64,000 nucleotides of DNA from Candidatus Cloacimonadales bacterium (GCA_963663475.2 CAXXJV010000001.1:1248001-1312000), one strand, 5' to 3'. Positions 27,727-64,000 are shown, numbered from the stretch's first letter. The notes: generated from the sequence alone by a model not told the origin. Numbers and translations are program-made.

Positions 27727-27750
27727 GAAACATGGATTAATGTAATATGG

Positions 27751-29602: not shown

Positions 29603-29620
29603 AAATTTCCTTTACAAATA

Positions 29621-29649: not shown

Positions 29650-29677
29650 CTTAATATTTTAAAAAAGAGGTAGGCAG

Positions 29678-31807: not shown

Positions 31808-31828
31808 TGTCATATAGGAGAAAAACAC

Positions 31829-32755: not shown

Positions 32756-32903
32756 TTGACAGAAAAGTACAAAAATAGTAATAGATTACAGAGGGAGGAT
32801 TACTCTCTCTATAATTAAATTAAATTTAAAGATATGGATATAGTTAAGAAAGGGGCTAAAGTTCTCCTGCTCCATTCTGCTTTAGATACGTTTATTGGTT
32901 TAT

Positions 32904-32963
32904 TCTTGATTGTCACTCTCTCAAAAAAGTATTGGAAATTTATAGAGAGAGTAACAATCAAGA
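32904..32963. repeat. 19-bp inverted repeat (one mismatch)
   Basis: TCTTGATTGTCACTCTCTC...GAGAGAGTAACAATCAAGA. Confidence 0.75.
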
Positions 32964-33047
32964 GATAGTTAAGAGTGATAAGTAATATTCATTGACAAAT
33001 AAATTCATCAAACAAAAATAATATCACTAAACATTTGGAGAATATAT

Positions 33048-35603
33048 ATGTTAAGAAAAGTTATAGTCATATTCCTACTTGTTGTTATACAAGGTCTATT
33101 TTCATCAGTTCCGGAAAAATACATCAGTATAACAATACAATCCCCAGAAGATATTTCCAGTCTAACTAAATTAGTATCAATAGATAACAGGCAAGATAAT
33201 ACTATCTATGCTTATGCTCTGCCAGAGCAACTAGAAAGATTACAGGAATTAGGTATCATATATGAGTTACAAACACTTCCAATGGATGAACGAGCAACTC
33301 TTACTATGGCTACAAATATAGAAGAAATGTTTAATTGGGATAGATATCCTATTTATGAAGTTTACTTAGAAATGATGAGTAATTTTGCCAGTGATTACCC
33401 TAATCTCTGTCTTCTAGAGAATATAGGTTATTCCCAGAACAACAGACAGATACCTGTTGTAAAAATAACAAGTAATGTTAATCAAGAAACAGCAAAACCA
33501 GCTTTTTATTATTCAGGTCAAATGCATGGCGATGAAGTAGTTTCATATATATTATTACTTAGGTTAATTGATGAACTCCTAAGCAATTATGGAAGTGATC
33601 AAGAGATTACAGACTTGGTAAACACAACAGAGATTTGGATAAATCCTTTGGCTAATCCAGATGGAACCTATTATGGAGGCAATCATACAGTTAGTAATGC
33701 TAGAAGATATCTTGCCAATAATTTAGATGCCAACAGAAATTATATAGACTTTATTGATGGCTACCCAGGTACTGGTTCTTCGACTACGGTTTCTCAAGAG
33801 AACTTAGATCAAATAAGCTTCATGACTGGTAAAGGTATTGTTATGTCTGCCAACACTCATAGTGGTCAAGAAGTAGTCAACTATCCTTGGGATACAATTC
33901 CTGGACTACATCCAGATGATTTATGGTACCAGCAGATTAGTCGAGTTTATGCTGATGCGGTTCATGAAGATGCACCAGCTACTTATATGGATGGTTTTGA
34001 TGATGGTATTACTAATGGTTATGAGTGGTATGAAGCTAATGGGACCAGACAGGACTACGCTAATTATTATCTGGGGATTAGGGAGATAACTATAGAACAT
34101 TCAATGGTTAAACTTTTAGATGTTAATGAATTGAATAATCATTGGACTTATAATCGGGACGCCTTAATTCAGCTAATGAAGCAAGTTCATTATGGTATCA
34201 AAGGTAATATAAGTGATTATCAAGGTAATCCTTTAGTAGCTAGTGTGGAAATATTAAATCATGATATTGATGTAACAAAAGTCAAATCAAATGGAGATTT
34301 TGGAGATTATTATCGTCCAATATATCCTGGTACTTATGATGTTAAGATAAGTGCTGAAGGTTATGAAAGCCAAATCTTTACTAATGTTGTTGTTAGTCCT
34401 AATAGCTCAGTTACTTTGGATGCTGTTTTCGGTCAAGAAGAACTAAGTCAAAATATTCAATTAAATTCAGGCTGGAACTTGATTAGTTATAATCTAGATT
34501 ATGAAGATTTATCTCCTACAAGCATTTTTTCAGATATTATAGATAATGTTCAAGAAATCAAAAATATGACACAGACTTATTCTCCTAATCTTCCTTACTA
34601 TTTCAATACTTTAGATAATCTTCTTCCACAAGAAGGCTATTGGGTTAATGTTAATGAAAATAGCTTGTTAGAACTAAGTGGGAATGCTTATGATCAGGCG
34701 AGTGTTATAGAATTAAACGCAGGTTGGAATTTAGTTGGTTTTTTACCACAAGTAAGCACTTCACCAGAAATTGCTTTGAGCTCAATTGGCGATAATTTAA
34801 TACAGGTAAAAGACCTTACTTCTATTTATAATCCTGCTATGCCAGATGTCTTTAATACAATGGATCTAATGTCTCCTAGTAAGGGGTATTGGATTGAAGT
34901 AGGAAATCCTTGCTCCTTAATTTATAATATTCAACCTGTTAGCAAAGTAGTAAGAGAAAATAATTCCCCTTGGGATATAAGCATTTACCCAAACAATAGT
35001 GCTATAGTCTATGCAGAATTTGAAACAGATGAATTTCAAATTGATTATGACAATGACTATATAGGTGTCTTCTCAGCAGGAGAATCCTTAGGAGCTGGAC
35101 TACTTAGTTATTATGAAGATCATGCAGGCAATGAAAAAGACATAGTAGCGCTTGTTGTTCAGATGCCAAGTAATCAAGCAAATTATAACTTTGTTTATTA
35201 CAGAGGCCAAGAAAATCAAAGTCTTACTTTAAATCAAGAAATAACCTTGCAAGCAGGTCAAGTTTATGGACAGCTACCTGATCAGCTAATAAGTCTAGAA
35301 TATCAGGCAACAGAGAATAGTAACGATAATGTAGAGCAAGTTAACTCTATTACCCTTTATGCTAAGTCTAATCCTTTTTCAAATATTTTGAATATTGGTC
35401 TAAATGCAAAAAATGAACAAGATCTTGAGCTAAGTCTTTATAATCTAAAAGGTCAGAAAGTAGCTTCAAAAAAACTTAGATTAAATTCTGGGCAAATGAC
35501 TGATATTTCCTTTAATACTCATAAGTTAGCCTCAGGTATCTACTTCCTAAGAACAAAAGGTTGTAGAAAAACATCAACACTTAAGCTTATAAAAATTAAG
35601 TAA
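33048..35603 (+). CDS. M14 zinc carboxypeptidase with degenerate sorting domain
   Basis: HGDE, NPDG, DANRNY, HSG..VVNYPWD, GITNGYEWY; GWNL repeats; NPF...YNLKGQKV...ASGIYF. Confidence 0.92.
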   Translation: MLRKVIVIFLLVVIQGLFSSVPEKYISITIQSPEDISSLTKLVSIDNRQDNTIYAYALPEQLERLQELGIIYELQTLPMDERATLTMATNIEEMFNWDRYPIYEVYLEMMSNFASDYPNLCLLENIGYSQNNRQIPVVKITSNVNQETAKPAFYYSGQMHGDEVVSYILLLRLIDELLSNYGSDQEITDLVNTTEIWINPLANPDGTYYGGNHTVSNARRYLANNLDANRNYIDFIDGYPGTGSSTTVSQENLDQISFMTGKGIVMSANTHSGQEVVNYPWDTIPGLHPDDLWYQQISRVYADAVHEDAPATYMDGFDDGITNGYEWYEANGTRQDYANYYLGIREITIEHSMVKLLDVNELNNHWTYNRDALIQLMKQVHYGIKGNISDYQGNPLVASVEILNHDIDVTKVKSNGDFGDYYRPIYPGTYDVKISAEGYESQIFTNVVVSPNSSVTLDAVFGQEELSQNIQLNSGWNLISYNLDYEDLSPTSIFSDIIDNVQEIKNMTQTYSPNLPYYFNTLDNLLPQEGYWVNVNENSLLELSGNAYDQASVIELNAGWNLVGFLPQVSTSPEIALSSIGDNLIQVKDLTSIYNPAMPDVFNTMDLMSPSKGYWIEVGNPCSLIYNIQPVSKVVRENNSPWDISIYPNNSAIVYAEFETDEFQIDYDNDYIGVFSAGESLGAGLLSYYEDHAGNEKDIVALVVQMPSNQANYNFVYYRGQENQSLTLNQEITLQAGQVYGQLPDQLISLEYQATENSNDNVEQVNSITLYAKSNPFSNILNIGLNAKNEQDLELSLYNLKGQKVASKKLRLNSGQMTDISFNTHKLASGIYFLRTKGCRKTSTLKLIKIK

Positions 35604-50041: not shown

Positions 50042-50617
50042 TCAGTTGATCCCGATTTTCTCGGAATAGGTAACATAATTTGCACTATTGTAGTTTAATA
50101 ATTCTTCAATACCATGAGAAATATAGGTATCAATTAATTCTACCATGTACTCATTTAGTTGGTTAATTTGTTTCATCTCCTGCTTGTCAAATTTATCAAG
50201 CACAAAGTCTCTCACATCTTTCGAATTAGGACGTCCAATTCCTATCCTAACTCTTCCATACTCATCACTATTTAGAGCATCTCTAATGGACTTTAATCCA
50301 TTATGCCCACCTGTACCACCTTTACCACGTATTCTTATCTTGCCAAAGGGTAAGTCTAAATCATCAACAATAACTAAAATTTCATTAATATTATTGAACT
50401 TAGTCATTGCACTCTGAATAGCAATACCACTTAGATTCATATAAGTAGTAGGTTTAATGATAATAGCATCAGAATATTTCGTAAAGTAATAATTCTTTGT
50501 CTTTGTAAAACTAAGATTATACTTTTTAGCAAAGTAGTCCACTGTAATAAAACCGATATTATGGCGGGTTTGAGAATATGACTTCCCAATATTACCTAAT
50601 CCCACAATCAACTTCAT
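50042..50617 (-). CDS. pth: Peptidyl-tRNA hydrolase
   Basis: VGLGN..Y..TRHNIGF, KPTTYMNLSG, GGHNGLKSI. Confidence 0.97.
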   Translation of the reverse strand: MKLIVGLGNIGKSYSQTRHNIGFITVDYFAKKYNLSFTKTKNYYFTKYSDAIIIKPTTYMNLSGIAIQSAMTKFNNINEILVIVDDLDLPFGKIRIRGKGGTGGHNGLKSIRDALNSDEYGRVRIGIGRPNSKDVRDFVLDKFDKQEMKQINQLNEYMVELIDTYISHGIEELLNYNSANYVTYSEKIGIN

Positions 50618-50619
50618 TA

Positions 50620-51231
50620 TTATTCAGCAGATTCCTCATTAGCAGCAGCTTCTTCTTGACCTTCTTCCACTTCCTCAGTTACTTTACTCTTATCATGAAC
50701 TACGATAATAGTAACGTCATCAGAATCTTTGATTTTTACATTAGGAATTACGATATCCTTAATGTGTAAAGAATCTCCGATTTCTAATCCTGAGATATCA
50801 ACCTGAACATCTTCAGGAATGTCTTTAGGTAAACATGCAATAGAAAGATTTCTAACGATGATATCAACAATACCACCCATCTTTGCACCTGCAGGTTCGC
50901 CAACATATTTGATAGGAAGAGATAAAGAAACTTCATGGCCTGGATTGAGAAGTAAGAAGTCAACATGTAAAATGTCACGTCTTACAGGGTGAATTTGCTT
51001 GTCTTTAAGAATGCAACGATGTTCTTTACCATCGATAACAATATTAAATACCGCTAATTCGCCAATACTCTTTTTGTAGGCTTTCATAAAATCAGGAGCA
51101 TTAAATTGGATTGGTAAACCCTCTTCTCCTTGACCATACATAATACCAGGAATATTGAATCCCTTTCTTAAGTCTTTACGGTCTGATTTTTTGCCTAGTG
51201 TTCTTTTTCCAGCTTCGATTTTGATAACCAT
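50620..51231 (-). CDS. rplY: 50S ribosomal protein L25/Ctc
   Basis: IPGIMYG, QIHPVRRDILHVDF, IPEDVQVDIS. Confidence 0.96.
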   Translation of the reverse strand: MVIKIEAGKRTLGKKSDRKDLRKGFNIPGIMYGQGEEGLPIQFNAPDFMKAYKKSIGELAVFNIVIDGKEHRCILKDKQIHPVRRDILHVDFLLLNPGHEVSLSLPIKYVGEPAGAKMGGIVDIIVRNLSIACLPKDIPEDVQVDISGLEIGDSLHIKDIVIPNVKIKDSDDVTIIVVHDKSKVTEEVEEGQEEAAANEESAE

Positions 51232-51255
51232 TGTTCCTCCACATTCGTTTCTGTT

Positions 51256-52203
51256 CTATCTAAAAAGAATACTTAATGATTCTTCAATATGTATTTTCTT
51301 AATTGCTATTGCTAACATTTCAGCAATAGATAACTGTTCAACTTTTGAACAGGCTCTTTTTGTCTCGTCTAAAGGCACTGTATTAGTAATAAATAATTTC
51401 TCAATAGGTGAGTCTTCTAATCTCTGGATTGCAGGACCAGAAAGAATACCATGTGAGCAGGCAGCAAAAATTCTAGTTGCTCCATTCTTTTGCAAAGCAT
51501 GAGCAACTTTTGTTAAACTACCACCTGTATCAATAATGTCGTCAAATAAGATAGCTGTCTTTCCTTCAACATTACCAATAATATTTAATAATTCTGCTGA
51601 ATCATTGTTGCCACTTCTTCTTTTATCACCAATAGCTAAATCACACTTTAACCTTTGAGCAAAAGCCCTAGCTCGATTAGCTCCACCTGAATCAGGAGAA
51701 ACAACCACAAGCTCGTTAGGATCTGCTATAGACTTAAAATGTCTAGCAAAGGTTGTCATAGAAAAAAGGTGGTCAACTGGGATGTTAAAGAATCCTTGAA
51801 TTTGATCTGCGTGCAAATCAATTGTGATGATTCTATGAGCTCCAGCTACTGTAAGTAAATCTGCTACTAATTTAGCTGTAACAGGCACTCTTGGTTGATC
51901 TTTTTTATCTGAGCGAGCATAGCCATAATAAGGAATTACACAAGTAATTCTTTGGGCTGAAGCTCTTTTAAAAGCATCAATCATGACTAATAATTCAACT
52001 AAGTTATCGTTAACTGGATAACAAGTTGGTTGAATTATAAAGACATCTGCACCTCTTACATTATCATTAATCTTAACAAAAGATTCATCATTAGCAAATT
52101 TAAAAACTTCTACATCTCCTAAGGGTATCCCGGCAAAATCAGCTACCTCTTTTGCTAATGGACGGTTTGCGTTTCCTGAAAATATCTTTAATCTTGAAAA
52201 CAT
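51256..52203 (-). CDS. prs: Ribose-phosphate pyrophosphokinase
   Basis: PYYGYARSDK, DLHADQIQGFF, VSPDSGG, DDIIDTGG; start trimmed to MFSRLKIFSG. Confidence 0.97.
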   Translation of the reverse strand: MFSRLKIFSGNANRPLAKEVADFAGIPLGDVEVFKFANDESFVKINDNVRGADVFIIQPTCYPVNDNLVELLVMIDAFKRASAQRITCVIPYYGYARSDKKDQPRVPVTAKLVADLLTVAGAHRIITIDLHADQIQGFFNIPVDHLFSMTTFARHFKSIADPNELVVVSPDSGGANRARAFAQRLKCDLAIGDKRRSGNNDSAELLNIIGNVEGKTAILFDDIIDTGGSLTKVAHALQKNGATRIFAACSHGILSGPAIQRLEDSPIEKLFITNTVPLDETKRACSKVEQLSIAEMLAIAIKKIHIEESLSILFR

Positions 52204-52217
52204 TTTTAACTTCCCAT

Positions 52218-53057
52218 TTATATTGTTTTTGTAATTTTCGTCCAATATCCTTGTTTTGTAAAATAATCATAAGATTGATTTAAAAGTTCAGCTGATGTAT
52301 ATATCCCATAACAGGTTGAACCTGAACCAGACATTTGGGCTTTGACAGCTCCTTTATCTTTTAGTTCATCTATTATTCTTCCAATTTCAGGATATTTAAT
52401 AATAATACCAGTTTGTAAGTCGTTAAATATTAGTTTTAAGTCTCTTGTTTCTAAAAATTTATTAAAATTATTATTTATTTTTCTTGTTTTAATTTCTTCA
52501 TAAGCTTCTTTACTAGAAATACCAAATTGAGGTTTTACTAAGAGAATATAATTTATCTGAATAGGATCAATTCTTTCAATAATTTCACCCCTATTGGAAC
52601 CGCAAGCAGATCCACCTTCTAGAAAGAAGTTTATATCACTTCCAAATTTTGCAGCAAGGCTATGCATGTCAGACTTAGTCATATTTAATGACCATAAGCT
52701 GTTTAAGGCTTTAATAGCATTGGCTGCGTTACTAGATCCTCCGCCTAAACCAGCAGCTAGAGGAATCTCTTTATTTAACTCAATTTTTACACCACTATTA
52801 ACACTATATTTATCTTTCAAATAAGTTGCAACTTTATGAATTAGATTCTTTTCTCCACAAAGTTGGTCTATATTTGACCAAACTTCAATTTCCTTACTTT
52901 TTGTCAAAGAATATTTTAGATTATCATGTAAATCAATCTCGCTGAATAGTGTTCTTATTTTATTATAGCCACTATTCAGCAGAGATTCAACATTTAATAC
53001 TAGGTTAATTTTTGCGTAAGAAAGAGAAAATATTTCTTGATTTTTTCTTATGTTCAT
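52218..53057 (-). CDS. ispE: 4-diphosphocytidyl-2-C-methyl-D-erythritol kinase
   Basis: AKINL, IPLAAGLGGGSSNAA, GSDI, MSGSGST; start uncertain, overlaps the wzc 3' end. Confidence 0.93.
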   Translation of the reverse strand: MNIRKNQEIFSLSYAKINLVLNVESLLNSGYNKIRTLFSEIDLHDNLKYSLTKSKEIEVWSNIDQLCGEKNLIHKVATYLKDKYSVNSGVKIELNKEIPLAAGLGGGSSNAANAIKALNSLWSLNMTKSDMHSLAAKFGSDINFFLEGGSACGSNRGEIIERIDPIQINYILLVKPQFGISSKEAYEEIKTRKINNNFNKFLETRDLKLIFNDLQTGIIIKYPEIGRIIDELKDKGAVKAQMSGSGSTCYGIYTSAELLNQSYDYFTKQGYWTKITKTI

Positions 53058-55509
53058 TTTGACCATAATAATAGTAATAGTAATAATAGTAATATTTATG
53101 TCTGTTATAGTACTTTTGTACTTTGATACCATTGACAATAAATCCATCTACTTTTTTATCTACATTAGCAAGTATTTCATTAGCTCTGGTTAAGACAGCT
53201 TTTTCTGTGAAAGCAACTCTTAAAACAAGTAATAATTTATCAACTTTTTTAGACATAATAATAGCATCAGTAACAGCAATTACAGGAGGTGAATCAAATA
53301 TAACATAATCATAGATGCTTTCTAATTCACGAATAAACTGATCCATACGTTCAGAAGATAAAAGCTCTGAAGGGTTTGGTGGAATAAATCCTGAAGTAAC
53401 AACATCAAGGTTAGGAATTCCAGATTTTTTAACTACATCTTCAACTAGTAAGGTATCATCAATCAAATAATCACTTGAACCATTATCCTTTTTTAAACCA
53501 AACTTTGTATGGATAGTTGGTCTTCTCATATCAATATCTACAATAACAACCTTATTGTTCATCTGAGCAAGTGTGATAGCAAGGTTTGAAGAGGTAGTTG
53601 ATTTACCTTCTTTAGGTGCAGATGAAGTAACTAAGATACTCATAGAACCAGGTTGCTTATTGGCAATAATATTTGTTCTTAATGAACGATAAGATTCTGC
53701 TATAGGTGATTTAGGTGAGTAATGGGATATTAGCTGGCCAGTTATGTGAGTAAGTGATTGCTGAAGCTTTGGCCTCTGTTCAGCAGAAGACTGGCTAATC
53801 ATATTATTCAATTCATCTAGTTCACCACTGGGTAGATCTATAAGCGGGATAGTACCGTAGATTGGACTATTGACTTGATTTTCAATATCTTCAACAGTTC
53901 TGAGTTTAGTATCTAAAGAATGAGCTAAGAAGGCTGAACCGATACCAAGTCCTAAACCAAGAATTACACCTATAAGATAATTCATCATTTTTTTAGGTTT
54001 AATTGGCTTGTTAGGAACTCCTGCTACTTCTAGGATTCGAACGTTACCTATTTGAGAAATTTCAGCAATCTTTGCATCTTCATATTTTTCAGTAATGATA
54101 GTATGAATCTTTTCATTGAAAAGCTTATCTCTAGTCAATTTTGAAAGTTCTAGCTCTTGGTCAGGAAGTCTATCCATTTCTTCTTGATAATACTGAACAG
54201 TTTCTCTTAAACCAACTAGTTTAGATGAAACTATTTCGTATTCACTTTCAACATTAGCTAATCTTTCAATTAGTTGTGACCTATATGAGAAAGGATCTTG
54301 CAAAGTATTTACTCTTACAGTCTCTGTAATTTTAGCTTTAAGTTCTCTTTTTAAATTGGAGAGCTCTTCATTTAAATTTACCAGTTCAGGATGGTCTTCT
54401 TGATAATTAGATTTAGATGATAGAACAATTAAGTATCTCTCTTTAGTAACAATTTCAGATATCAAGTTATTAATTAATGAATTGTTTAAAATATTATCTA
54501 TAGAAACAGTATCTCTTACACTAGCTTGAGGCTCATCATACCCAGCAATTAAGAAATCTTCATCTACTTCTTCTCCAAAGAGATTCTGGGCTTTTGCCTC
54601 TTCAAGTTGATCTTCATTACTTTTCTTAGCAGAAGAATCTTGATAGGCTCTAGTTAAGTCTCTGTCTTTAATATATAAATCATTAAGAATGATATTTTGA
54701 TTAGTTATCTTACGTTGAAGTATCTGAATTTCAGTGGCTTTAAGTAATGAATCGGTCATAGCTGTATGCATATCTGCTTCAAAAGTACCAGCCTGTTCAA
54801 CAAGTTTTTGTGAAGCAGGGGAAAGCTCAGATATTTGATTAGCTTTTTTAAAGTCTCGTAACTGTTGTTCTGAATTCTCTAAGAAAGATTTTGTTTCCTT
54901 AACTCTTTCTTCCAAGAACTCTCTTATCTGGGTAAATTCTAATCTAGCATAACGTGTTGTTTCTTCTTGGAAAGCAATTTCCAATGCATTTATAGCTTCA
55001 GCACATTCAGCAGGAGATTCAGATTCATAACTTAAAGTAAGGACATCTGTTTCCCTGATTGATTCAATTTTAAATCTTCCTTTCATCGCTCCTGCAATTG
55101 ATCTAATATATCTATCGTATAAGGGACTCGATTTGGCAATATTAGAAGAAGGTAAGGAGAATTGGTTGAAGTTATTTGACTGAACAAGTTTTTGGGCAGC
55201 ACTAACCATAACTGGTGTACTCTGTATAATTTGAATATTATTATTTAAGCTTGTTTTATTGTTTCCCATAGATCCTAGCATTAGGAGCTCAGAACCACCC
55301 TTATTTTCTTCTAAGAGAATTTTACCACCAGCTGAATAAATTCTTGGTTGTTTGGAAGTGTAGTAGTAGGAACCAATGGCAACAATGGCAAAAATAAAGA
55401 ATACTAAGAACTTGAATCTATAGATTATTGCCAAATAATCAGATATTTTAATTTCATCTTCAAAGATGTTACCGCTTTTTTGTTGATAGTTTGAGTTATT
55501 ATTATCCAT
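53005..55509 (-). CDS. wzc: Wzc-like polysaccharide co-polymerase / BY tyrosine autokinase
   Basis: 2 TM plus coiled coil; ESYRSLRTN, APKEGKST, DIDMRRP, IFDSPP; C-terminal Tyr cluster. Confidence 0.93.
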   Translation of the reverse strand: MDNNNSNYQQKSGNIFEDEIKISDYLAIIYRFKFLVFFIFAIVAIGSYYYTSKQPRIYSAGGKILLEENKGGSELLMLGSMGNNKTSLNNNIQIIQSTPVMVSAAQKLVQSNNFNQFSLPSSNIAKSSPLYDRYIRSIAGAMKGRFKIESIRETDVLTLSYESESPAECAEAINALEIAFQEETTRYARLEFTQIREFLEERVKETKSFLENSEQQLRDFKKANQISELSPASQKLVEQAGTFEADMHTAMTDSLLKATEIQILQRKITNQNIILNDLYIKDRDLTRAYQDSSAKKSNEDQLEEAKAQNLFGEEVDEDFLIAGYDEPQASVRDTVSIDNILNNSLINNLISEIVTKERYLIVLSSKSNYQEDHPELVNLNEELSNLKRELKAKITETVRVNTLQDPFSYRSQLIERLANVESEYEIVSSKLVGLRETVQYYQEEMDRLPDQELELSKLTRDKLFNEKIHTIITEKYEDAKIAEISQIGNVRILEVAGVPNKPIKPKKMMNYLIGVILGLGLGIGSAFLAHSLDTKLRTVEDIENQVNSPIYGTIPLIDLPSGELDELNNMISQSSAEQRPKLQQSLTHITGQLISHYSPKSPIAESYRSLRTNIIANKQPGSMSILVTSSAPKEGKSTTSSNLAITLAQMNNKVVIVDIDMRRPTIHTKFGLKKDNGSSDYLIDDTLLVEDVVKKSGIPNLDVVTSGFIPPNPSELLSSERMDQFIRELESIYDYVIFDSPPVIAVTDAIIMSKKVDKLLLVLRVAFTEKAVLTRANEILANVDKKVDGFIVNGIKVQKYYNRHKYYYYYYYYYYGQNEHKKKSRNIFSFLRKN

Positions 55510-55519
55510 GAATCCTCTC

Positions 55520-55999
55520 TTATAGTTTTAGAATTGTGATATAGACTGATAAGATGATACCTATTTCAGACATAAATTTAACAAAGTCTTTAAATTTACG
55601 ATAGAAGGTACCTCTTACAATTACAGTGTCACCAGGTTTTAGGGTAACATTATACTCTTTATCGCCACTATTAAGATAAGATTCTAAATCAATTGATATA
55701 GTTTCTTCTTGTTCTCCATAAGAGCGAACAATTCTAATATCTTGAAGGCGAGCATCATCAGATGGCCCCCCAGCCAAAGCTATTAAAGTTAAAATATCAG
55801 TATTATCCGGTACTAGATATAGGCCCGGACTCTTAACTTCGCCCCAAATGTAGGCATTGATTTTAAGCTGTTCTTGGTCTCCTCTGGCACCAGAAAATGA
55901 GTATGCTGATGCATTGTTAATACCAGAAGAAACAGTGTCTTGTGCAGCAATAGATAAACTAAACAAGACCAAAGTAATTATAATTAATAATCGTCTCAC
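55520..55999 (-). CDS. SLBB-domain (Wza-like) polysaccharide export protein
   Basis: IWGEVKSPGLY, LIALAGG, LKPGDTVIV. Confidence 0.85.
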   Translation of the reverse strand: MRRLLIIITLVLFSLSIAAQDTVSSGINNASAYSFSGARGDQEQLKINAYIWGEVKSPGLYLVPDNTDILTLIALAGGPSDDARLQDIRIVRSYGEQEETISIDLESYLNSGDKEYNVTLKPGDTVIVRGTFYRKFKDFVKFMSEIGIILSVYITILKL

Positions 56000-56067
56000 A
56001 AGAGCCCCTTTATATGTTTTTTTACAATTAATTATTAAATCTAATATAAGTCAAGATTATTCTTGCT

Positions 56068-56901
56068 TCAATCTCTATTTATTAGGAATGAACTAATTTC
56101 AGATTCTGAGCCATAATAGAAGCTTCTATTCTCATCTGAATCACCATAATAAAAATCATCTAATTCGTAATCATACTTGAATACATCAACTCGCCAGTAA
56201 TATTCTCCATCAGCAAGTTGTCCTCCATTATAGTTAGCAGAAGAATCATCTTGTAAGTTTTCATCAGGGGCATCTATAAGAATATCCTTAAACCAGATGA
56301 GGCCAGATTCATTACTGTATAATAAAACACGATAAAAGTCGTAATTATTCGAATCATTCCAGTCAAAGACAAGATTTGATGAGCTAGTTAGGGTTTGACC
56401 GTTGAAGGGTGAGATAGGGTAGACCTTTTCTGCTAGCCTGTAGTGAACAGTATCTGAACGAGTTGAATTACCAGCTCTATCAAAAACGTCTATAAAGAAA
56501 GAAAATTTGTTCTCATGAAGATAATCAGCTGATATGCTATTATCAATATAAGTATTATTTTCAGCAGTAATAGAATCCACCAGCACTATGTTATCAATAT
56601 CATTATTCATATAACGGTGAATAATAATTTTTTCTAAGTCATTATCATAGATAAGTGGTTCCCACATTAGGCGGAAACCTCTATTTCCACTGTCTGCATC
56701 AATACCATTGTTATCATCATCTAGAAAAATCTCATCATTATTATAGCTAATAGTACCGTCACCTGTATCTCCTAAATGGGGAACAAGTATAGGTTTGGTG
56801 GGTGCTATAGTATCTTTTTCTATTTCATCATCCCCGCTACATCCAAGCATACTAATAGCAAGTGCTAGAAGTAATCCTAGTAGTAAAAACTCTCTTCTCA
56901 T
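56068..56901 (-). CDS. Hypothetical lipoprotein with Fn3-like domains
   Basis: MLGC lipobox; DRAGN, YYWRV motifs. Confidence 0.8.
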   Translation of the reverse strand: MRREFLLLGLLLALAISMLGCSGDDEIEKDTIAPTKPILVPHLGDTGDGTISYNNDEIFLDDDNNGIDADSGNRGFRLMWEPLIYDNDLEKIIIHRYMNNDIDNIVLVDSITAENNTYIDNSISADYLHENKFSFFIDVFDRAGNSTRSDTVHYRLAEKVYPISPFNGQTLTSSSNLVFDWNDSNNYDFYRVLLYSNESGLIWFKDILIDAPDENLQDDSSANYNGGQLADGEYYWRVDVFKYDYELDDFYYGDSDENRSFYYGSESEISSFLINRD

Positions 56902-56910
56902 ATATTTCTC

Positions 56911-57918
56911 CTAAAAAGTAAAGCTTAGTCCGATTCTGTTAGTATTGCCTAAGTTATTAGTAACAAAGGCATAATCAATATTAAAGTTATAAATGCTAAG
57001 ACCTAGACCTGTTGAGTAGTCTCCTTGAGTATATCCAGCTCGGACAGCTACTCTGTTATCGTAGTTAAATTCTCCACCAAAGTGGACTGGTTCGTCATAG
57101 ACATAATCTTGGTCAATAGCAAGAATTAAGTTTGAATTAATAAAAGGAAGGGGTTGCTCAATAGCTACACCCATTTTAGTATTCATAAGAATTTGGTCAA
57201 CACGGTCTGAACGAGAATCCCATTTGATATCAGTATCACCAAGGTCCATAAAGTTAATTCCGTATTTAATCTTTCCTAGATAATCTCTATTGAAGACATA
57301 AGACATGTCTGTAGAAGCTAAGAGTGATAAGTCAAAGCCAGTACCAGTACCCATGTTTTTATATAGTTTTCTTCTAATAAACTTAAGATTACCACCTGCA
57401 TATAGGTCAATTGGCATTTCAAAGAACTTCCAACCTAGGTCAATATCAAAGTGAATATGCTTACTAAATCCTAACTGAAAGAGGTCATCTGTACTTTTAA
57501 AAGTACTAGAAGCCTGTCCTGGTAAATGCAAAGCAGGATTTGCTACTCTTTGGTCAACATTACTTCCCACAAGATATTCTTCTGAAAAATAAGGAATCTC
57601 ATCAATAGTCAAACGGGTCCAGTTAATACCAATAGTAGCATTGTTAGGTAGGGGTTGGCAAAAGACAACATTATCATAACTAGCAATATTATCATAAAGA
57701 AAAGCATGCATAGCAAAGATTTGTCCCTGCTTTATCTGACCAATTCCAGCAGTATTCCAGTAGATAGCATTAGCATCATCAGCAATAGCACTGTAGGCTC
57801 TACCCATAGAAATAGCTCTAACTCCACCACCAATAGCTAAAAAATCACCAGCATATCTTCCTGCAAAGAGATTGATTGCTACTAGAACTATGATTATTGT
57901 TATATATAATTTTTTCAT
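56911..57918 (-). CDS. PorV/PorQ-family outer-membrane beta-barrel
   Basis: FLAIGGGVRAISMG.AYSAIADDANAIYWN.AG; C-terminal aromatic (SFTF). Confidence 0.85.
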   Translation of the reverse strand: MKKLYITIIIVLVAINLFAGRYAGDFLAIGGGVRAISMGRAYSAIADDANAIYWNTAGIGQIKQGQIFAMHAFLYDNIASYDNVVFCQPLPNNATIGINWTRLTIDEIPYFSEEYLVGSNVDQRVANPALHLPGQASSTFKSTDDLFQLGFSKHIHFDIDLGWKFFEMPIDLYAGGNLKFIRRKLYKNMGTGTGFDLSLLASTDMSYVFNRDYLGKIKYGINFMDLGDTDIKWDSRSDRVDQILMNTKMGVAIEQPLPFINSNLILAIDQDYVYDEPVHFGGEFNYDNRVAVRAGYTQGDYSTGLGLSIYNFNIDYAFVTNNLGNTNRIGLSFTF

Positions 57919-57926
57919 TTCTGCTC

Positions 57927-60900
57927 CTATTTGATGATTGCCATTTTCTGGATTTTCTCAACTTTCTTACTGCCTCTTTTGGCTATTACTTTATAGAAAT
58001 AAACTCCGTTTGCTAGGTCGAAACCAGCTTTATCTTTACAGTTCCATCCGTAAACACTTCTCGGATATTCATGATATCCTACAGAGGTTGGTAGGTTATT
58101 AAACTCCATTACCTTTCTTCCAGAAACACTATAGACAATAATATCAACATTATCAGCATCATCTGTCAGGGTGTAAGTAAAACGAGTTCTTCCATCATTC
58201 TCAGGTTCTCTTGCCTGAGCAACAACGGGGTTAGGATAGTTAGCAATATTAATAATATCAAAGGTAGTATTAACCTTAAAAGTAACATCAAGAGAGTTAA
58301 AATTACCACTAACATCTGTACAGTCAACAACTAGAGTATATTCTCCTCTAGGTAGATCTAGATGATATTTGATAGGAATGTTATTAATATTATTATCGTT
58401 CTGGGTAATTATTAAATCTTCTTCCTCTACTTGCTGTCCATTCAAATATAAGGCAAATCTATTTTCATCAACATCAATACCATTAGCATCAGATAAGACT
58501 AATGAGATTGTACCTTTACCTGAAATATATCCACCTTGGGTAAATTCTTGTTCTTGGACATTTGGGTCTATTTGAGGTAAAATATCATCTTTATTTCTAA
58601 GGATAGTGAACTTTCCTAACTTACTAACTCTTCCTCTAATAGTGCCATCATCTGTAGAAGTAAATCCACCTTGGTGAATCCACTTTTGATATCTATCTTC
58701 CCATCTAAAGAGTTTTATCTGATTATTATTGGCATAATAGTTAGTTAGAGAGTCTAGTTTAGCATACTTAATTTTAAGATCTAGTTCTCCATTAAGTAAT
58801 AGTCCAGTGGAATCAGCAATTTCACTATTTAGGCATGAGATGTCATAGACTCTTGATTCATGTCCTGAATCTACAAAAACAGTTTGCACATCAGGTTGTT
58901 GATAAGGTGATAGATAGTCAGTATGAGTAATATTATAGAGCATTTCAGTATTGCTGTAGCCAGCAGGTATTACTAGCTCAGTAGTTTTATCTGGACTTGT
59001 AACTTGTCCACCAAGATTACCAATTACTTGGTAATTCATAATATTTTCTATAGTATGGGTATTATTTGTCTGAGTAATTTCACTAAAGCTATTAGGATAG
59101 TTTATCCGTAAAGTGAAACGATAATTTCCAGCAGTATAATCCTCAATTGGTATTAGCAGTTGAGTCTCATCATTCATTGCAAGACCAGGAAGAATATTTT
59201 CGTATATCTGAATATTGTTAGATGATTCTAAATCAAGTCTGTCTAACTGGTAATTTGCTTCTTGAGAGTCATAATTACCTCTATTTTTTATGATATATTT
59301 TAAAGTTGGTATTCCTGACATATTAATTAACTCACCTGAAATTACTGCTAAATCAGGTCCTAAGACAATGTAATTATGTTGATTTGATGTTATCATTTCT
59401 TGGTCGCTTGTAAGTACTTGGATAGTATAGGTAATTTCTCTATCTGCACTATGCTGAGGAATTGCTAGACTACTAATATATTGATTCTCACTACCTGCTA
59501 CTAATTCCATTGGAATGCTAGTCCTATTTTTACTAGATGCAGAACTATAATCTAAAGTTACACTTTCTATCTCATTTTCAGTGATAATATTACAACTTAC
59601 CCTAACAGAATCAAAAACGCTTGGTTGAGCTGGTGAATGACTTATGTTGGCAAAATTAGAGTCACCAACACCCACTGTTTTTTCTCCGAAATATACAGCT
59701 TGTGAATCAAAACTCTCTACTCTTATTCGGTAAAACTGACCTTGGTCTGCTTCCTCTGGAATAAGATGTGTATGGTTATACTGGCCAGCAATAACTGGTA
59801 GATAATAGGCAATATTCTGGATTAAACCATCTTTATCTATCACATATAGCTTAGCTTTTTCCAAGCCTGGTATATCAGTGTTCATGCTTACCCGAATAGT
59901 ATCTCCAGGAGCATAGATTTCTTTATCAGTTGTTACTTCAAGTCTTTTCTTAGGTTTATGGATTGGAATATTAGGATCACCTATTAAGACGCAACCTGCA
60001 GTTAGAGCTACCCTTGCAGAACCACTAGCTTTAACATAGAATTTTGCTTTAGTATAATTTAAAACATCTCCTAGGTTATCTAATTCTGTCCTAAAATAAC
60101 CATCTGCTAAAGCTGTGCCAAAGATTAAGTCCTGATTAAGATAACCTAAACCAGAAAAACCAACAGTAGCAATAGCTCCTTTCCCAGGTTCTGATACGAA
60201 AGCTTCACTAATACAAGAAGCACCAGGGTAGTCAAAAGAAGAAGCATAACAGGCTAGACTAGAAACAAAAGGATAGTAATCATTATTTAAAGTTCTGATA
60301 TCATTAAAGTTTAGAAGATTATAGTCGGCCCAGATTCTACCACCACCATGTCCCATAAACTGCAAGAAATTAGTTCCTTGGTCAATATTATCCTTAAGCC
60401 TGAAAGTTGAACCATAATAGTTTGGATTAACAGTTTGGGTGGTTGTATATACTCTAGAAACACGGTAATCATTATTGATCATTCTTCTCCGGATAATTTC
60501 TTCCTGTTGGGAGAAAATATCATTACCATCATCTATTTTTCCACCTGCAGTTAAGGTAACATGTGCAGATCCCAAACTTTCATAATCTGTTTCTTTTATA
60601 TGAGAGTAGCTTTTTTGAGCAATATCACTAATCTGTTCAGCTTCCCAAACATTGATTCGAGATACAGCTATCTCAGCTATATGATCATCTCCTATTATAC
60701 AACCATACCAGTTGTCACTTGGAGTTACCCCATGTTTCCATGTCCAGATTTTTCTATAAGGAATAACATTATAAACTGCTGTTGGGGAATTGTCTGTAGT
60801 ATTATAAGTTGCGTCTCCAGCTAAAAGAACAGATCTTAATCTGGGATTAGACCAATTGTGATAGGCATAAGAAAGGAAATCTTTAATTGCATCAGCTGAG

Positions 60901-62888
60901 ATTATTCCATTATTGAACTCATCATAGATATCTTGTACGTCAATAATTAAAGTATTGTGCCCCATCTCATCCCAAAGAGACTTATACATTGCTAAACCTT
61001 CATTAGCAATGAAATCATTTTTTGTGATAATTAAGCAATCATAGTTGTTCGAAGTAGATTTCAGGTCTGAAGTCTGATCAATTCTTACCTCTAATGGTAC
61101 TTTTTTATTGGCTTCAGTTATAGCTAGATAATGGGTATCTTCAGAATCAACAATATCTTGGAAGGTTACATTATAAGGAGCTTGTCCTAGCTCAAATGCA
61201 GGCTCTACTCTAATATTTTCCATTTTACTTGAGCCAATTTTATAGACTGATACATCTGTAGATTGAAATCCCCCAAGAACAAATTGATAGAGACCATATG
61301 CCTTGTTTTTAGGCTTCTTAAATTTAATCCAATCTAGGTCAGTCTTATATTCACGCCAATAGGTAAGATCTAAGTAATCAAGAGCTACTAACTCATTCTC
61401 TCCATTAGGAGTATCACCAGTAAGACTTATATAAAGAAAGTTTTCTCCATGATTTAAGAAAGAGTTGGGAATTAAATCCTTACTTGTAAAAACTTCCTCT
61501 GTCTGACCTGTCCATACTTTGGAATCTACAATACCTTGATTAAGTCTTACAATTGCATGGTGGTCATTTATTTCTGAATCACTATAAGTCAAACCAAAGA
61601 GTGAAACCTTTGCTTCTAACTTATTGATGTTTAAATCTGCAGGATATTGAAGATCAAAGGGGACAATTTCCAGATTAGGAGCTTTAATTTTTCTCCAAAA
61701 GTAGTTATCTTCCCGGTAATAATTCACATCATAACTATAACCACGACCGATTTTTTCGTAAAAACTCTGAACTTCAAAATGAACATTATGATCATAGCTG
61801 GTTGGTTCTATATAGTCTGCTGAATTAGACACCATAATACCGCCATTTTCCACAGCCATTCTCGCACCTAAACCATCAGTTAATCTTAATTTATAAACAT
61901 TTCTTGAACTATAAGCTGAAAAATAAGAAGTTTCTCCTGGATTTCTTTTTCCATAAAATTCAAAATAATCTTGTCTGTCAAATGAACCATCTTCTTCTCC
62001 AGCAAAATAAATTGGTTCAAGACCATCTTTACTCTCAAGCTGTAAATATTTAGGATTAATATTTCCTAAATCCCAACCTAGAGAAAGACCAGTTAATTCT
62101 TGATACTCTTCTAACTTCTCTTCTAAAAAATCATAGGTTATTTTGTAAAGGCCATCTTCTAAAACAACTAAATCGATAGCATTATGACTGTAGCTTTGTC
62201 TGGTGACATCACCATCATAAACTAAATCCTTTCTCCATTTTTTGGAAAATCTATTATTGATAAAGAAGTCATCCCCAAGTCTGTCTATATAATTATCTGA
62301 TATGTACCAGTCTCTTTTTTCACTTAGATCACCTTGGATAGTGATCTCAAATTCTATATATTCATGAACATATAGCTTTTTCTGAAACTCATTATACTGG
62401 AAAGGAAAAAGCTGAAAACTTGTAAAATGTCTATCACCAATAAAGGCAGGCTGCCCTTTAGTGATAATCTTTTGAGGATACAGTTCATTCTTAAGTTTTT
62501 GAGGATTAGGGTTAGATTCTTGATATTCAACCTCATTATTAGCAAGAATATTTACTATTGGAGATCTTTCTAAATTTAAATTTTTGTATTCTTTACTTGT
62601 TTTTTTAATAATTCTAAGATTAATATCTCCATCTTCAGGAATACCTACTGCATCAGCAAAGTAAGGAATAATTGCTTTTTCTTCCTCAAAAGTAAGTTCT
62701 GAATCAACAATATTAATTTTATCAGCTGGTGAATTGCTTGTTTTACTTCTTTCAATGGTATAATCAGGAACTTCAAATCCGATCCTAATGTAGGCTTCGT
62801 TCATGTCTAGGATTTTAAAATCATAGCCAAAAAGATACTGGGATAAGACTATAAATATAGCCGTTAATATTATTATTCTTTTAGTCAT
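57927..62888 (-). CDS. PorU-like C25 (gingipain-family) cysteine peptidase/sortase
   Basis: C25 propeptide-like N-terminus; QDIYDEFNNG, GHGG (His), LAC (Cys), IGDP; NYPNP...LANGVYFY C-terminal domain. Confidence 0.85.
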   Translation of the reverse strand: MTKRIIILTAIFIVLSQYLFGYDFKILDMNEAYIRIGFEVPDYTIERSKTSNSPADKINIVDSELTFEEEKAIIPYFADAVGIPEDGDINLRIIKKTSKEYKNLNLERSPIVNILANNEVEYQESNPNPQKLKNELYPQKIITKGQPAFIGDRHFTSFQLFPFQYNEFQKKLYVHEYIEFEITIQGDLSEKRDWYISDNYIDRLGDDFFINNRFSKKWRKDLVYDGDVTRQSYSHNAIDLVVLEDGLYKITYDFLEEKLEEYQELTGLSLGWDLGNINPKYLQLESKDGLEPIYFAGEEDGSFDRQDYFEFYGKRNPGETSYFSAYSSRNVYKLRLTDGLGARMAVENGGIMVSNSADYIEPTSYDHNVHFEVQSFYEKIGRGYSYDVNYYREDNYFWRKIKAPNLEIVPFDLQYPADLNINKLEAKVSLFGLTYSDSEINDHHAIVRLNQGIVDSKVWTGQTEEVFTSKDLIPNSFLNHGENFLYISLTGDTPNGENELVALDYLDLTYWREYKTDLDWIKFKKPKNKAYGLYQFVLGGFQSTDVSVYKIGSSKMENIRVEPAFELGQAPYNVTFQDIVDSEDTHYLAITEANKKVPLEVRIDQTSDLKSTSNNYDCLIITKNDFIANEGLAMYKSLWDEMGHNTLIIDVQDIYDEFNNGIISADAIKDFLSYAYHNWSNPRLRSVLLAGDATYNTTDNSPTAVYNVIPYRKIWTWKHGVTPSDNWYGCIIGDDHIAEIAVSRINVWEAEQISDIAQKSYSHIKETDYESLGSAHVTLTAGGKIDDGNDIFSQQEEIIRRRMINNDYRVSRVYTTTQTVNPNYYGSTFRLKDNIDQGTNFLQFMGHGGGRIWADYNLLNFNDIRTLNNDYYPFVSSLACYASSFDYPGASCISEAFVSEPGKGAIATVGFSGLGYLNQDLIFGTALADGYFRTELDNLGDVLNYTKAKFYVKASGSARVALTAGCVLIGDPNIPIHKPKKRLEVTTDKEIYAPGDTIRVSMNTDIPGLEKAKLYVIDKDGLIQNIAYYLPVIAGQYNHTHLIPEEADQGQFYRIRVESFDSQAVYFGEKTVGVGDSNFANISHSPAQPSVFDSVRVSCNIITENEIESVTLDYSSASSKNRTSIPMELVAGSENQYISSLAIPQHSADREITYTIQVLTSDQEMITSNQHNYIVLGPDLAVISGELINMSGIPTLKYIIKNRGNYDSQEANYQLDRLDLESSNNIQIYENILPGLAMNDETQLLIPIEDYTAGNYRFTLRINYPNSFSEITQTNNTHTIENIMNYQVIGNLGGQVTSPDKTTELVIPAGYSNTEMLYNITHTDYLSPYQQPDVQTVFVDSGHESRVYDISCLNSEIADSTGLLLNGELDLKIKYAKLDSLTNYYANNNQIKLFRWEDRYQKWIHQGGFTSTDDGTIRGRVSKLGKFTILRNKDDILPQIDPNVQEQEFTQGGYISGKGTISLVLSDANGIDVDENRFALYLNGQQVEEEDLIITQNDNNINNIPIKYHLDLPRGEYTLVVDCTDVSGNFNSLDVTFKVNTTFDIINIANYPNPVVAQAREPENDGRTRFTYTLTDDADNVDIIVYSVSGRKVMEFNNLPTSVGYHEYPRSVYGWNCKDKAGFDLANGVYFYKVIAKRGSKKVEKIQKMAIIK

Positions 62889-63031: not shown

Positions 63032-64000
63032 TTACTTTTGTGGCCTCATGCCAATATCTGTTCTAATAACTTTTCCTTGGAAGAAAATATTTTCGACTAA
63101 AGAATAAGCTCGGTGAATTAATTCATCTCTATCATAACCTAATGAGGTAATTCCTAATACTCTGCCTCCATTTGTCAATAATTTTCCTTCACTTTTTTTC
63201 ACACCAGCATAATAAACCTGGCTATCTTTATCTATATCATGGACTTCAATTACCTTATTTTTTTCATATTTACCTGGATATCCCTGGGAAGCACATACTA
63301 TATTTATGGCAAATTTATCCTGCCAACTTAGTTGAAGCTTATTTACTGACTTATCTGCTATTGCTTGACAAACTTCAACAAAATCTGTCTTTAACAAAGG
63401 CAATACAACCTGAGTTTCTGGATCTCCAAATCTGCAATTAAATTCAATTACTTTAGGTCCTTCTTTCGTGATCATTAACCCGCAATATAAGACACCTGAG
63501 AAGGGACAACCACTATCACTTAAAGCCTTCAAAATTGGCTTAAAGACATCTTTCTCAATATCATATCTATATTTTTCAGCTTCTATTATAGGGGCAATAG
63601 CTCCCATTCCTCCAGTGTTTGGTCCTTTGTCTCCTGCCTCTAACTGTTTGTGATCCATAGAAAATATAGTTGTTACAAAATTCTCACCATCACAAAAAGC
63701 AAAAACTGATGTTTCCCAACCCTCAAGAAACTCTTCTATTACTAACTTATCACCAGCCTGTCCAAATTTACTGTCTAACATAAACTCTTTAAGCTCTTTT
63801 TGGCCACTAGCTTGATCTTCTACTATTACAACCCCTTTACCTGCTGCCAATCCATCTGCCTTAAATACTAAAGGATAGTCACACTTACTAATATAGGCTA
63901 AAGCTTGCTCATAGTCTGAAAATACTTGATATTTCGCTGTTGGTACATTATATCTCTGCATCAAATCTTTAGCAAAAGCTTTACTAGACTCTATTCTAGA
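63032..64000 (-). CDS. purD: Phosphoribosylamine-glycine ligase (5' end beyond the window)
   Basis: KADGLAAGKGV, GPNTGGMGA, EFNCRFGDPETQ, TNGGRVL. Confidence 0.97.
   Translation of the reverse strand, partial: SRIESSKAFAKDLMQRYNVPTAKYQVFSDYEQALAYISKCDYPLVFKADGLAAGKGVVIVEDQASGQKELKEFMLDSKFGQAGDKLVIEEFLEGWETSVFAFCDGENFVTTIFSMDHKQLEAGDKGPNTGGMGAIAPIIEAEKYRYDIEKDVFKPILKALSDSGCPFSGVLYCGLMITKEGPKVIEFNCRFGDPETQVVLPLLKTDFVEVCQAIADKSVNKLQLSWQDKFAINIVCASQGYPGKYEKNKVIEVHDIDKDSQVYYAGVKKSEGKLLTNGGRVLGITSLGYDRDELIHRAYSLVENIFFQGKVIRTDIGMRPQK

Follow-up and report, generated by a model that had tools for sequence, protein, structure and literature searches.

Type IX secretion and the attachment step that follows it are understood almost only from Bacteroidota. 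In that phylum's type IX secretion system (T9SS), cargo leaves the cell via SprA, barrels of the PorV type hold sorting domains, and PorU cleaves these domains and transfers the cargo to an acceptor. The PorU of Porphyromonas stays on PorV through its own uncleaved sorting domain. Polysaccharide export offers further points of comparison: SLBB domains line the Wza channel, and in the PEP-CTERM/exosortase (XrtA) system genetic ties link protein sorting to Wzc-like and short export proteins. Here, we describe a cluster of five genes at positions 53005–62888 of a 64,000-nucleotide stretch of the genome of Candidatus Cloacimonadales bacterium (GCA_963663475.2, CAXXJV010000001.1:1248001-1312000), referred to below as the window. 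It is very probable that the cluster holds a second, divergent PorU/PorV-type module. A role of the cluster in handling glycan is doubtful, and the combined statement, that of a second module with an SLBB protein, and possibly Wzc, handling polysaccharide at the same site, is put forward tentatively, with a little under an even chance of being correct. The tie of the module to Wzc is suggestive. The cluster comprises the following genes:

57927..62888, minus strand: long PorU-like protein, 1653 amino acids (aa), identified by Pfam and NCBIfam.
56911..57918, minus strand: PorV-family outer-membrane barrel, 335 aa, identified by NCBIfam NF033709, an AlphaFold model and Foldseek.
56068..56901, minus strand: FN3/Ig-like lipoprotein, 277 aa, identified by its lipobox, a model and Foldseek.
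55520..55999, minus strand: mini-SLBB protein, 159 aa, identified by Pfam SLBB and SLBB_2.
53005..55509, minus strand: Wzc-type polysaccharide co-polymerase (PCP) of class 2a / bacterial tyrosine autokinase, 834 aa, identified by Pfam and TIGR01007.

The five open reading frames (ORFs) are arranged head to tail and separated by gaps of 8, 9, 68, and 10 bp, which confirms the composition and the tight spacing (8–68 bp) claimed for the cluster in the original prediction.

The long PorU-like protein contains Propeptide_C25 (9.8e-13) and Peptidase_C25 (1.5e-69) domains according to Pfam. It can be divided into a signal peptide, a Propeptide_C25-like N-terminus, a PorU N-terminal region, the C25 domain, about 550 residues of Ig-like domains, for which the Pfam matches are weak, and a putative C-terminal sorting domain. 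In alignments, residues His847 and Cys880 fall on the catalytic GHG and Cys of Porphyromonas gingivalis PorU (6za2) and gingipain R, so that the C25 His/Cys pair is intact, as had been claimed. Against the PorU model NF033707 the protein reaches 241.3 bits (cut-off 420) and covers model positions 8–757 of 1095 only, and against the 'PorU2' model NF052324 it reaches 168.5 bits (cut-off 450). The sorting domain scores 18.7 bits with TIGR04183 (cut-off 23) and 50.1 bits with a profile derived from the sorting domains of this genome, and residues 1512–1651 (last 140) align to the C-terminal domain of PorU 6za2.

The assembly of this genome (G000; 3.30 Mb in two contigs, C1 and C2; 99.2% complete) encodes a canonical PorU of 1307 aa at C1:408426-412349, about 0.9 Mb from the cluster, which matches NF033707 with 571.6 bits over positions 5–1095. 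The long PorU-like protein exceeds it by about 350 aa, and the sorting domains of the two enzymes group together, separately from the cargo domains. Judged by these comparisons, the 1653-aa C25 protein is a predicted divergent paralogue and not the PorU of this organism. Because the canonical PorU and a better PorV/PorQ-family barrel (340 aa, C1:1169258-1170280, 223 bits) are encoded elsewhere, the window pair is not the 'core' sorting pair for which it had been taken. The canonical PorU gene (region C1:408426-413379, L107:8426-13379) is preceded by a sorting-domain gene and followed by a gene for a radical-SAM/SPASM protein (339 aa), and no PorV gene comes after it. The gene of the 340-aa barrel (C1:1160553-1172688, L109) lies after those of a TonB-dependent receptor, ExbB, two ExbD proteins, TonB, and a 1061-aa protein without family, and a sorting-domain gene follows it. 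A third barrel of 318 aa is encoded at C1:844407-845363.

The 335-aa barrel of the cluster reaches 89.2 bits against the PorV/PorQ family model NF033709, just under the cut-off of 90, 28.8 bits against the PorV equivalog NF033710 (cut-off 250), and 85.5 bits against PorV2, NF052325 (cut-off 325). With 168.5 versus 450 bits for the enzyme and 85.5 versus 325 for the barrel, the window pair therefore does not belong to the PorU2/PorV2 family as defined. The AlphaFold model of the barrel, built on 24 orthologues, has a predicted local distance difference test score (pLDDT) of 82.3. Its best matches in the Protein Data Bank (PDB) found by Foldseek are the PorV structures of Flavobacterium johnsoniae (8gl6_F and 6h3i_F; E-values 4e-11 and 2.6e-10), with template modelling (TM) scores of 0.69–0.70, as compared to 0.41–0.53 for FadL, TodX, and TbuX. 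A profile of the 24 orthologues also places F. johnsoniae PorV first among PDB sequences, with an E-value of only 0.036. The 335-aa protein is thus modelled with a PorV-type (FadL-like) barrel fold.

The sequence LLALAISMLGC of the 277-aa protein reads as a lipobox, in which LGC at Cys21 is invariant in 27 of 27 aligned sequences. The lipoprotein has no family match in Pfam or NCBIfam. Its model (pLDDT 89.4) contains two FN3/Ig-like domains, and the Foldseek matches are tandem FnIII domains (best E-value 3.7e-07, TM 0.25–0.38). The mini-SLBB protein consists of a signal peptide, a single SLBB domain (Pfam SLBB, 2.2e-11, residues 50–95; SLBB_2, 1.7e-09, residues 49–128), and a hydrophobic C-terminal helix. 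When the protein is aligned with 13 relatives, drawn from Cloacimonadota as well as other lineages, the core WG..PG.Y.VP...AGGP is conserved, and the helix, which may enter the outer or the inner membrane, is kept in all 14 sequences. In 13 of the 14 sequences a glutamine follows the signal peptide at the likely cleavage site (AAQ, FGQ, GQ), which fits the 'Q-rule' for signal peptidase I substrates named in the title of a paper cited in PMC11285876. Prediction of a complex of four copies of the mature mini-SLBB protein gave a score of 0.30 against a mark of 0.42, which lends no support and counts neither way. A word-based search with the protein produced 19 matches with uninformative taxon names.

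The 834-aa protein contains Wzz (residues 18–107), GNVR (455–528), and AAA_31 P-loop (635–764) domains of Pfam, and passes the tyrosine autokinase model TIGR01007 with 174.5 bits (cut-off 108). Hydrophobic stretches near residues 32–51 and 507–531, as well as the Walker A (PKEGKST), A' (VVIVDIDMRRP), and B (YVIFDSPP) motifs, can be read from its sequence. It scores 216.5 bits against the Wzc equivalog models, below the cut-off of 1068, and is therefore a member of the family and not an orthologue of Escherichia coli Wzc. The protein ends in YYNRHKYYYYYYYYYY, with a run of ten tyrosines, and 58 of 58 Wzc orthologues have 10–15 tyrosines within their last 45 residues. The tails (window 53005–53100 and orthologues in loci L015–L093) contain 7–14 consecutive tyrosines, which is to our knowledge unusually long for a tyrosine autokinase, and then a basic stretch ending in FLRKN or RKNKSxS; this combination of poly-tyrosine and basic tail is conserved across Cloacimonadota. 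All matches of the window Wzc and SLBB proteins to XrtA-associated models are sub-threshold: 152 bits for TIGR03018 (cut-off 230.65), 122 for TIGR03007 (cut-off 278.85), and 43.6 for TIGR03027 (cut-off 180).

A second Wzc of 891 aa is encoded in a cluster at C2:154126-163745 (locus L110:9126-18745). This cluster also contains MotA/ExbB-like and MotB/OmpA-like genes, an ATPase of the XrtA/PEP-CTERM type (143 bits, below the cut-off), a protein combining SLBB and LytR_cpsA_psr domains, a true Wza (Poly_export and SLBB, 246 aa), and a 921-aa protein without family.

The composition of the conserved unit emerged from loci outside the phylum. An exhaustive search returned 6656 PorV-like relatives at E ≤ 0.001, and the nearest clusters from outside Cloacimonadota (30–39% identity) carry the labels Gemmatimonadota, TA06, Edwardsbacteria, KSB1/Calditrichota, and Zixibacteria. 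Gene neighbourhoods were compared in 80 metagenome loci, on contigs without taxon assignment, collected with a seven-sequence PorV-like profile, since a first broad alignment was too diverse. In contigs with the string of long PorU-like, PorV-like, (lipoprotein), and SLBB genes, the PorV-like proteins share 29–39% identity with the query set. Of the 80 loci, 45 have sufficient flanking sequence (600 bp or more upstream, 1800 bp or more downstream). The genes found beside the PorV-like gene are:

PorU-like and SLBB: 14 of 45 metagenome loci.
PorU-like only: 5 of 45.
SLBB only: 3 of 45.
Neither PorU-like nor SLBB: 23 of 45.

The SLBB gene follows in 14 of the 19 loci with an adjacent PorU-like gene, as compared to three of the 26 without one. 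All 11 of the PorU-like proteins scanned that adjoin PorV-like genes are long (1562–1738 aa) and sub-threshold (295–386 bits). According to tblastn, Wzc occurs within 6 kb in only two of the 29 loci with at least 5 kb of downstream sequence, L133 and L149. SLBB, and not Wzc, recurs outside the phylum, and the conserved unit is therefore the long PorU-like protein, the PorV-like protein, (the lipoprotein), and the mini-SLBB protein. On this distribution, Wzc would be a Cloacimonadota addition to the module.

In the PorU-bearing metagenome loci, the SLBB gene is followed by that of a secreted protein of about 390 aa (380–430 aa) and then by unrelated housekeeping genes. Examples of this protein are encoded at L115:12346-13509, L129:12596-13801, and L153:12614-13780, and have a charged C-terminal coiled coil, EEELRRLRREREQAEKELEELRQLLEEE. 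The protein has no match in Pfam or NCBIfam, and its profile finds nothing in the genome studied here. It was considered as a PCP lacking the kinase and ruled out, as it resembles an outer-membrane protein that ends in a coiled coil.

Within the phylum, to which the organism was assigned by the source names of its close relatives, the cluster is embedded between housekeeping genes:

63032..64000, minus strand: purD, 3' part, directly upstream of the cluster, identified by Pfam, NCBIfam, and synteny.
50042..53147, minus strand: ispE, prs, L25, and pth, directly downstream of the cluster, identified by Pfam, NCBIfam, and synteny.

The ispE ORF overlaps the end of wzc. A PorV-like profile retrieved 80 loci from named Cloacimonadota assemblies, in which the PorV-like protein is 48–87% identical to that of the window. 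Among the loci with enough flank, the gene order is kept as follows:

PorU-like directly upstream of PorV-like: 70 of 70 loci.
Lipoprotein gene after PorV-like: 65 of 65 loci.
SLBB and Wzc following: 60 of 63 loci (at least 3 kb downstream).
purD upstream: 49 of 65 loci.
ispE downstream: 47 of 50 loci.

Wherever these loci contain SLBB and sufficient flank (60 of 60), Wzc adjoins it, as it does in eight of eight split cases examined.

Presence and absence were compared in a balanced sample of 61 genomes across the phylum, this genome included, with positions compared by hand. The long PorU-like protein is present in 56 of them (frames of 1512–1834 aa, 147–237 bits), a PorU of canonical type in 55 (365–641 bits), and mini-SLBB in 56, exactly those with the long PorU-like protein. 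Five genomes of one genus (G005, G008, G011, G020, and G026; single contigs of 1.5–1.6 Mb, 97–99% complete) lack both types of PorU as well as mini-SLBB and a Wzc orthologue. This genus looks, from its gene content, like a reduced lineage that may have lost the whole surface-sorting apparatus. The joint absence of SLBB, long PorU-like protein, and Wzc from these five genomes represents a single event only. The long PorU-like and SLBB genes share contig and strand in 44 of the 56 genomes, no more than about 7 kb apart; they lie on opposite strands in two (G030 and G051), and on different contigs in ten. Five of the latter ten were fetched, and G044, G058, G025, G019, and G039 were left out.

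The conserved order could also arise from two unrelated neighbours, one a T9SS accessory unit of the PorU-like, PorV-like, and lipoprotein genes, and the other SLBB-Wzc, a pair for polysaccharide export or regulation, their adjacency being an order inherited within a frozen housekeeping stretch. We consider this explanation somewhat unlikely. It draws on several observations that weigh against a functional connection of the module to glycan and Wzc. The genes purD and ispE-prs-L25-pth hold the same conserved order as the cluster, and the order inside the phylum therefore singles out no functional tie. The link between PorU-PorV and SLBB-Wzc is broken in at least three lineages of Cloacimonadota. 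There are true splits between porV and the lipoprotein gene in G056 and G033 (family f10), and between the lipoprotein and SLBB genes in G009 and G063 (family f4), and genus g13 is inverted, as are loci L042 and L050, in which purD-PorU-PorV-lipoprotein has the opposite orientation to SLBB-Wzc-ispE-prs-L25-pth, at a distance of about 4 kb. Without exception, the breaks examined keep SLBB-Wzc together with ispE-prs and PorU-PorV together with purD. In the genome of L094, which with L042 and L050 makes up the three loci outside the 60 of 63, SLBB-Wzc-ispE is located on a separate short contig, and the case of G062 is a mere assembly break within porV. Beyond the phylum Wzc is outside the module: none of 13 PorU-adjacent metagenome loci with at least 5 kb of downstream sequence contains it. 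The conservation of the cluster across Cloacimonadota was thus established for the five-gene order in 60 of 63 loci, so the predicted linkage of porU/porV to wzc is kept in most relatives and is lost or inverted in the lineages named above. Against two unrelated neighbours stands the SLBB gene following the pair in the 14 of 19 metagenome loci, where PorV is about 30–37% identical and the other neighbours differ (ProRS, RF2, cytidine deaminase), which is hard to explain by inherited order alone. In addition, SLBB and the long PorU-like protein have the same presence or absence in 61 of 61 genomes.

Further points against a connection to glycan concern the polysaccharide itself. The 159-aa SLBB protein has no Poly_export (PES) domain in Pfam. 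Neither sugar-synthesis genes near the cluster nor any glycosyltransferase domain was found in the scanned ORFs of the window (10 + 29 ORFs; at least 100 aa upstream of 50 kb and at least 80 aa downstream of it). A conventional Wza-Wzc cluster sits elsewhere in the genome, on contig 2, and no second class of cargo sorting domain that would match a second sortase was seen among the 162 described below. In P. gingivalis, the anchoring glycan is a lipopolysaccharide (LPS) made by the Wzx/Wzz/WaaL route, and the synthesis of A-LPS needs WbaP, Wzx, and WzzP, according to the portion of PMC3684754 available to us. Among the deletion mutants covered by the same portion, which include wza-wzc-wzb, WbaP and Wzx are named as critical, and wza-wzc-wzb is not (PMC3684754).

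In three metagenome loci, L133, L134:9992-20134, and L149:3152-13400, the PorV-like gene heads a Wza-Wzc locus, and no PorU-like gene was found there. Pfam identifies Wza (Poly_export and two SLBB domains), Wzc, and glycosyltransferases in L134 and L149, and a flippase-family gene in L134 as well, whereas SLBB and Wzc of L133 are known from tblastn matches alone. These loci hint that some PorV-like barrels serve polysaccharide export. Alternatively, the barrel, SLBB, and Wzc may constitute a polysaccharide translocon like the Myxococcus assembly of a class-3 member of the outer-membrane polysaccharide export (OPX) family, a porin, and a PCP, with the PorV-like protein as the pore and the long PorU-like protein as a surface protease docked there by its sorting domain, rather than as a sortase for other cargo. 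The presence of a canonical PorU for ordinary cargo elsewhere in the genome would be in line with this, and a class-3 OPX protein lacks a membrane-spanning part and works with a beta-barrel porin and a Wzc-type PCP (PMC12819527 and PMC9603273). We nevertheless regard the translocon as improbable. The best match of the barrel is the type IX shuttle PorV (TM 0.70) and not a PgaA-type porin, the SLBB protein has no Poly_export domain, sugar-synthesis genes do not lie near the cluster in the scanned ORFs, and no PCP is found beside the module outside the phylum. Furthermore, the C25 enzyme retains the PorU-specific N-terminal region, corresponding to model positions 8–757.

The genome encodes other parts of a type IX system. 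SprA was identified by TIGR04189 (cut-off 200), with 204.7 bits for a single stretch and a total of 487.2 bits over one 2133-aa frame, and by Pfam SprA_N (9.2e-17). A PorZ-like gene (844 aa, C1:677756-680290) scores 143 bits and does not reach the cut-off of 260. The GldK model gives 15 matches to its FGE-sulfatase part only, the best with 75.2 bits against a cut-off of 350. Two genes before sprA (C1:1085725-1096117, L106), with coaX in between, lies the gene of one of these matching proteins. This protein, of 960 aa, combines eight CHB_HEX_C_1 repeats with an FGE-sulfatase domain at its C-terminus, the latter being the domain type of PorK/GldK and GldJ. The models of GldL, GldM, and GldN (TIGR03513, TIGR03517, and TIGR03523) and of PorP/SprF have no match in the genome in searches run without a positive control, and the same applies to Pfam GldM_1st (PF12081) in four genomes of the genus; for want of that control, the absence of GldL/M/N and PorP is therefore not shown. 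The search for the remaining parts that the original prediction had called for thus yielded SprA, and of PorK/L/M/N the FGE-sulfatase part alone. If the absence of the motor were confirmed, the phylum would run type IX-like secretion without a known motor.

It has to be considered whether Wzc and SLBB stand in for the missing PorL/M/K/N motor and ring and energise type IX secretion across the envelope in this phylum. As an ATP-binding protein of the inner membrane, Wzc extends a long domain into the periplasm, and the unmatched GldL, GldM, GldN, and GldM_1st models leave a place for such a role. However, the control missing from those searches limits what they say, other phyla have the module without Wzc, and the conserved poly-tyrosine tail suggests that Wzc behaves as an ordinary autokinase. 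We know of no precedent for Wzc or SLBB as a type IX motor and consider this role extremely improbable.

Cargo is abundant in the genome and present in the window:

22747..35603, plus strand: five tandem genes with sorting domains of type A, 1659, 591, 709, 308, and 851 aa, identified by Por_Secre_tail and TIGR04183.

As had been claimed, five cargo genes are present; all of them exceed the TIGR04183 cut-off of 23 bits (31.1–49.5 bits), and they likely encode T9SS cargo, judging by these domains. The last of the five, of 851 aa, is an M14 carboxypeptidase. An iterated profile built from the five sorting domains identified 162 ORFs ending in a sorting domain in the 3.30-Mb genome, 143 of which belong to one class. 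This number predicts about three per 64 kb by chance, and the five genes in the window are therefore no evidence of linkage. With a host in Cloacimonadota, SprA, and about 162 sorting-domain ORFs, the system indeed lies outside Bacteroidota.

For the reading that we favour, a second PorU/PorV-type module with a polysaccharide-handling partner, the following mechanism can be proposed. SprA would take cargo across the outer membrane. For the long PorU-like enzyme, an uncleaved sorting domain may provide the hold on a PorV-like barrel of its own, in the manner of PorU on PorV, and by analogy with Bacteroidota the enzyme is predicted to form a second station for C-terminal processing and attachment. 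In what is the weakest step, the SLBB protein, plus Wzc in this phylum, might handle or deliver polysaccharide at the same site. The SLBB protein is the best candidate for the link to polysaccharide because it recurs with the pair in distant lineages, SLBB lines the Wza channel, and PorV-like genes head Wza-Wzc loci. In an extended form of the proposal, several candidate phyla of the Fibrobacteres–Chlorobi–Bacteroidetes (FCB) group would share a four-part machine with a sortase at the outlet of a small polysaccharide conduit, where cargo would be joined to exported polysaccharide rather than LPS, and Wzc would have been added in Cloacimonadota so that the conduit spans the envelope under phosphorylation control. 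We consider this extended form quite unlikely.

The remainder of the window contains few features related to the cluster. Its setting among housekeeping genes, purD on one side and ispE-prs-L25-pth on the other, and its lack of glycosyltransferases in the scanned ORFs agree with the earlier description. Between 52 and 64 kb, a scan found 59 promoter-like sites, as compared to 52.9 in shuffled sequences, and four terminator-like sites, as compared to 5.3, none of which is located in the minus-strand intergenic gaps; both results are uninformative. The PHP-domain gene at 35915–36664 was considered as a CpsB-type phosphatase acting on Wzc and ruled out, as it encodes a histidinol phosphatase of the HisJ family (119.9 bits, above 90.2). 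A type I-B CRISPR-Cas locus occupies positions 1205–16194 (Cas6b, Cas8b/TM1802, Cas7, Cas5, Cas3, Cas1, and Cas4), and an array of 87 repeats of the Rfam family CRISPR-DR7 follows the cas genes.

Proteins with sorting signals take up about 160 genes in this 3.3-Mb genome, which also has two PorU-type enzymes, yet GldL/M/N were not detected. The conservation of a second enzyme-barrel pair alongside partners of its own may indicate that these uncultured biopolymer degraders attach surface proteins to another acceptor or with other helpers. Should the connection to polysaccharide export prove true, it would represent a new way to build a protein-decorated glycan coat. The module is a defined target of four to five genes for metaproteomics and structural work, and the cluster makes the chemistry of attachment outside Bacteroidota testable.

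In a literature search that did not extend to supplements, neither a second long PorU/PorV pair nor its SLBB partner was the subject of any paper found, and none joined type IX secretion, PorU, and SLBB. The query 'PorU2' gave only unrelated papers among the matches listed, and that combining PorU, PorV, and Wzc gave P. gingivalis papers only. Concerning the T9SS of Cloacimonadota or Cloacimonetes, none of the papers found describes the cluster in the portions available; in such portions, one source states that T9SS genes may occur in Cloacimonadota (PMC11285876), and another mentions sorting-domain proteins there (PMC8542988).

Five described systems can be compared with the cluster. Similarly to PEP-CTERM/XrtA sorting, the window contains Wzc and SLBB proteins that match XrtA-associated models below threshold. 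In contrast to it, the cluster has no exosortase gene or PEP-CTERM signal, and the signal here is a C-terminal domain of type A. The cluster shares with Wza/Wzc export a secreted SLBB protein gene directly before that of a Wzc-type autokinase, with a barrel gene nearby, and its three-part layout recalls WzaB-WzpB-WzcB of Myxococcus xanthus (PMC12819527). However, all three OPX classes carry a Poly_export domain, as stated in PMC9603273, whereas the SLBB protein of the cluster has one SLBB domain and no Poly_export, and its barrel is PorV/FadL-like and not PgaA-like. Glycosyltransferase, flippase, and polymerase genes are missing near the cluster in the scanned ORFs.

The WzzP system of P. gingivalis provides an example of a PCP-family protein that affects the retention of type IX cargo: in the wzzP mutant, A-LPS and O-LPS are shortened and the amount of gingipain on the cells is reduced (PMC3684754). 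WzzP, a PCP-1, has neither kinase domain nor tyrosine tail and acts on LPS, whereas the cluster protein is a PCP-2a autokinase. Unlike the wzc of the cluster, wzzP is not located beside porU-porV as far as that paper indicates (PMC3684754).

The closest described system is the PorU-PorV attachment complex of Bacteroidota, with PorZ-PorQ, as found in P. gingivalis and F. johnsoniae. The acceptor in P. gingivalis is A-LPS (PMC3684754). The enzyme of the cluster is longer and fails the PorU cut-off (241 versus 420 bits), and GldL/M/N-type genes were not found in this genome, in searches lacking a positive control. The FN3 lipoprotein and the mini-SLBB protein that accompany the cluster pair were not found by the literature search as parts of the Bacteroidota complex. 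The NCBIfam PorU2/PorV2 families (NF052324 and NF052325) likewise pair a PorU-related enzyme with a PorV/Q-related barrel, and the window proteins match both models. As in Bacteroidota, the genes of the C25 enzyme and the PorV-family barrel are adjacent, the His and Cys residues are kept, the enzyme probably has its own sorting domain, and the genome contains SprA and many sorting-domain genes of type A.

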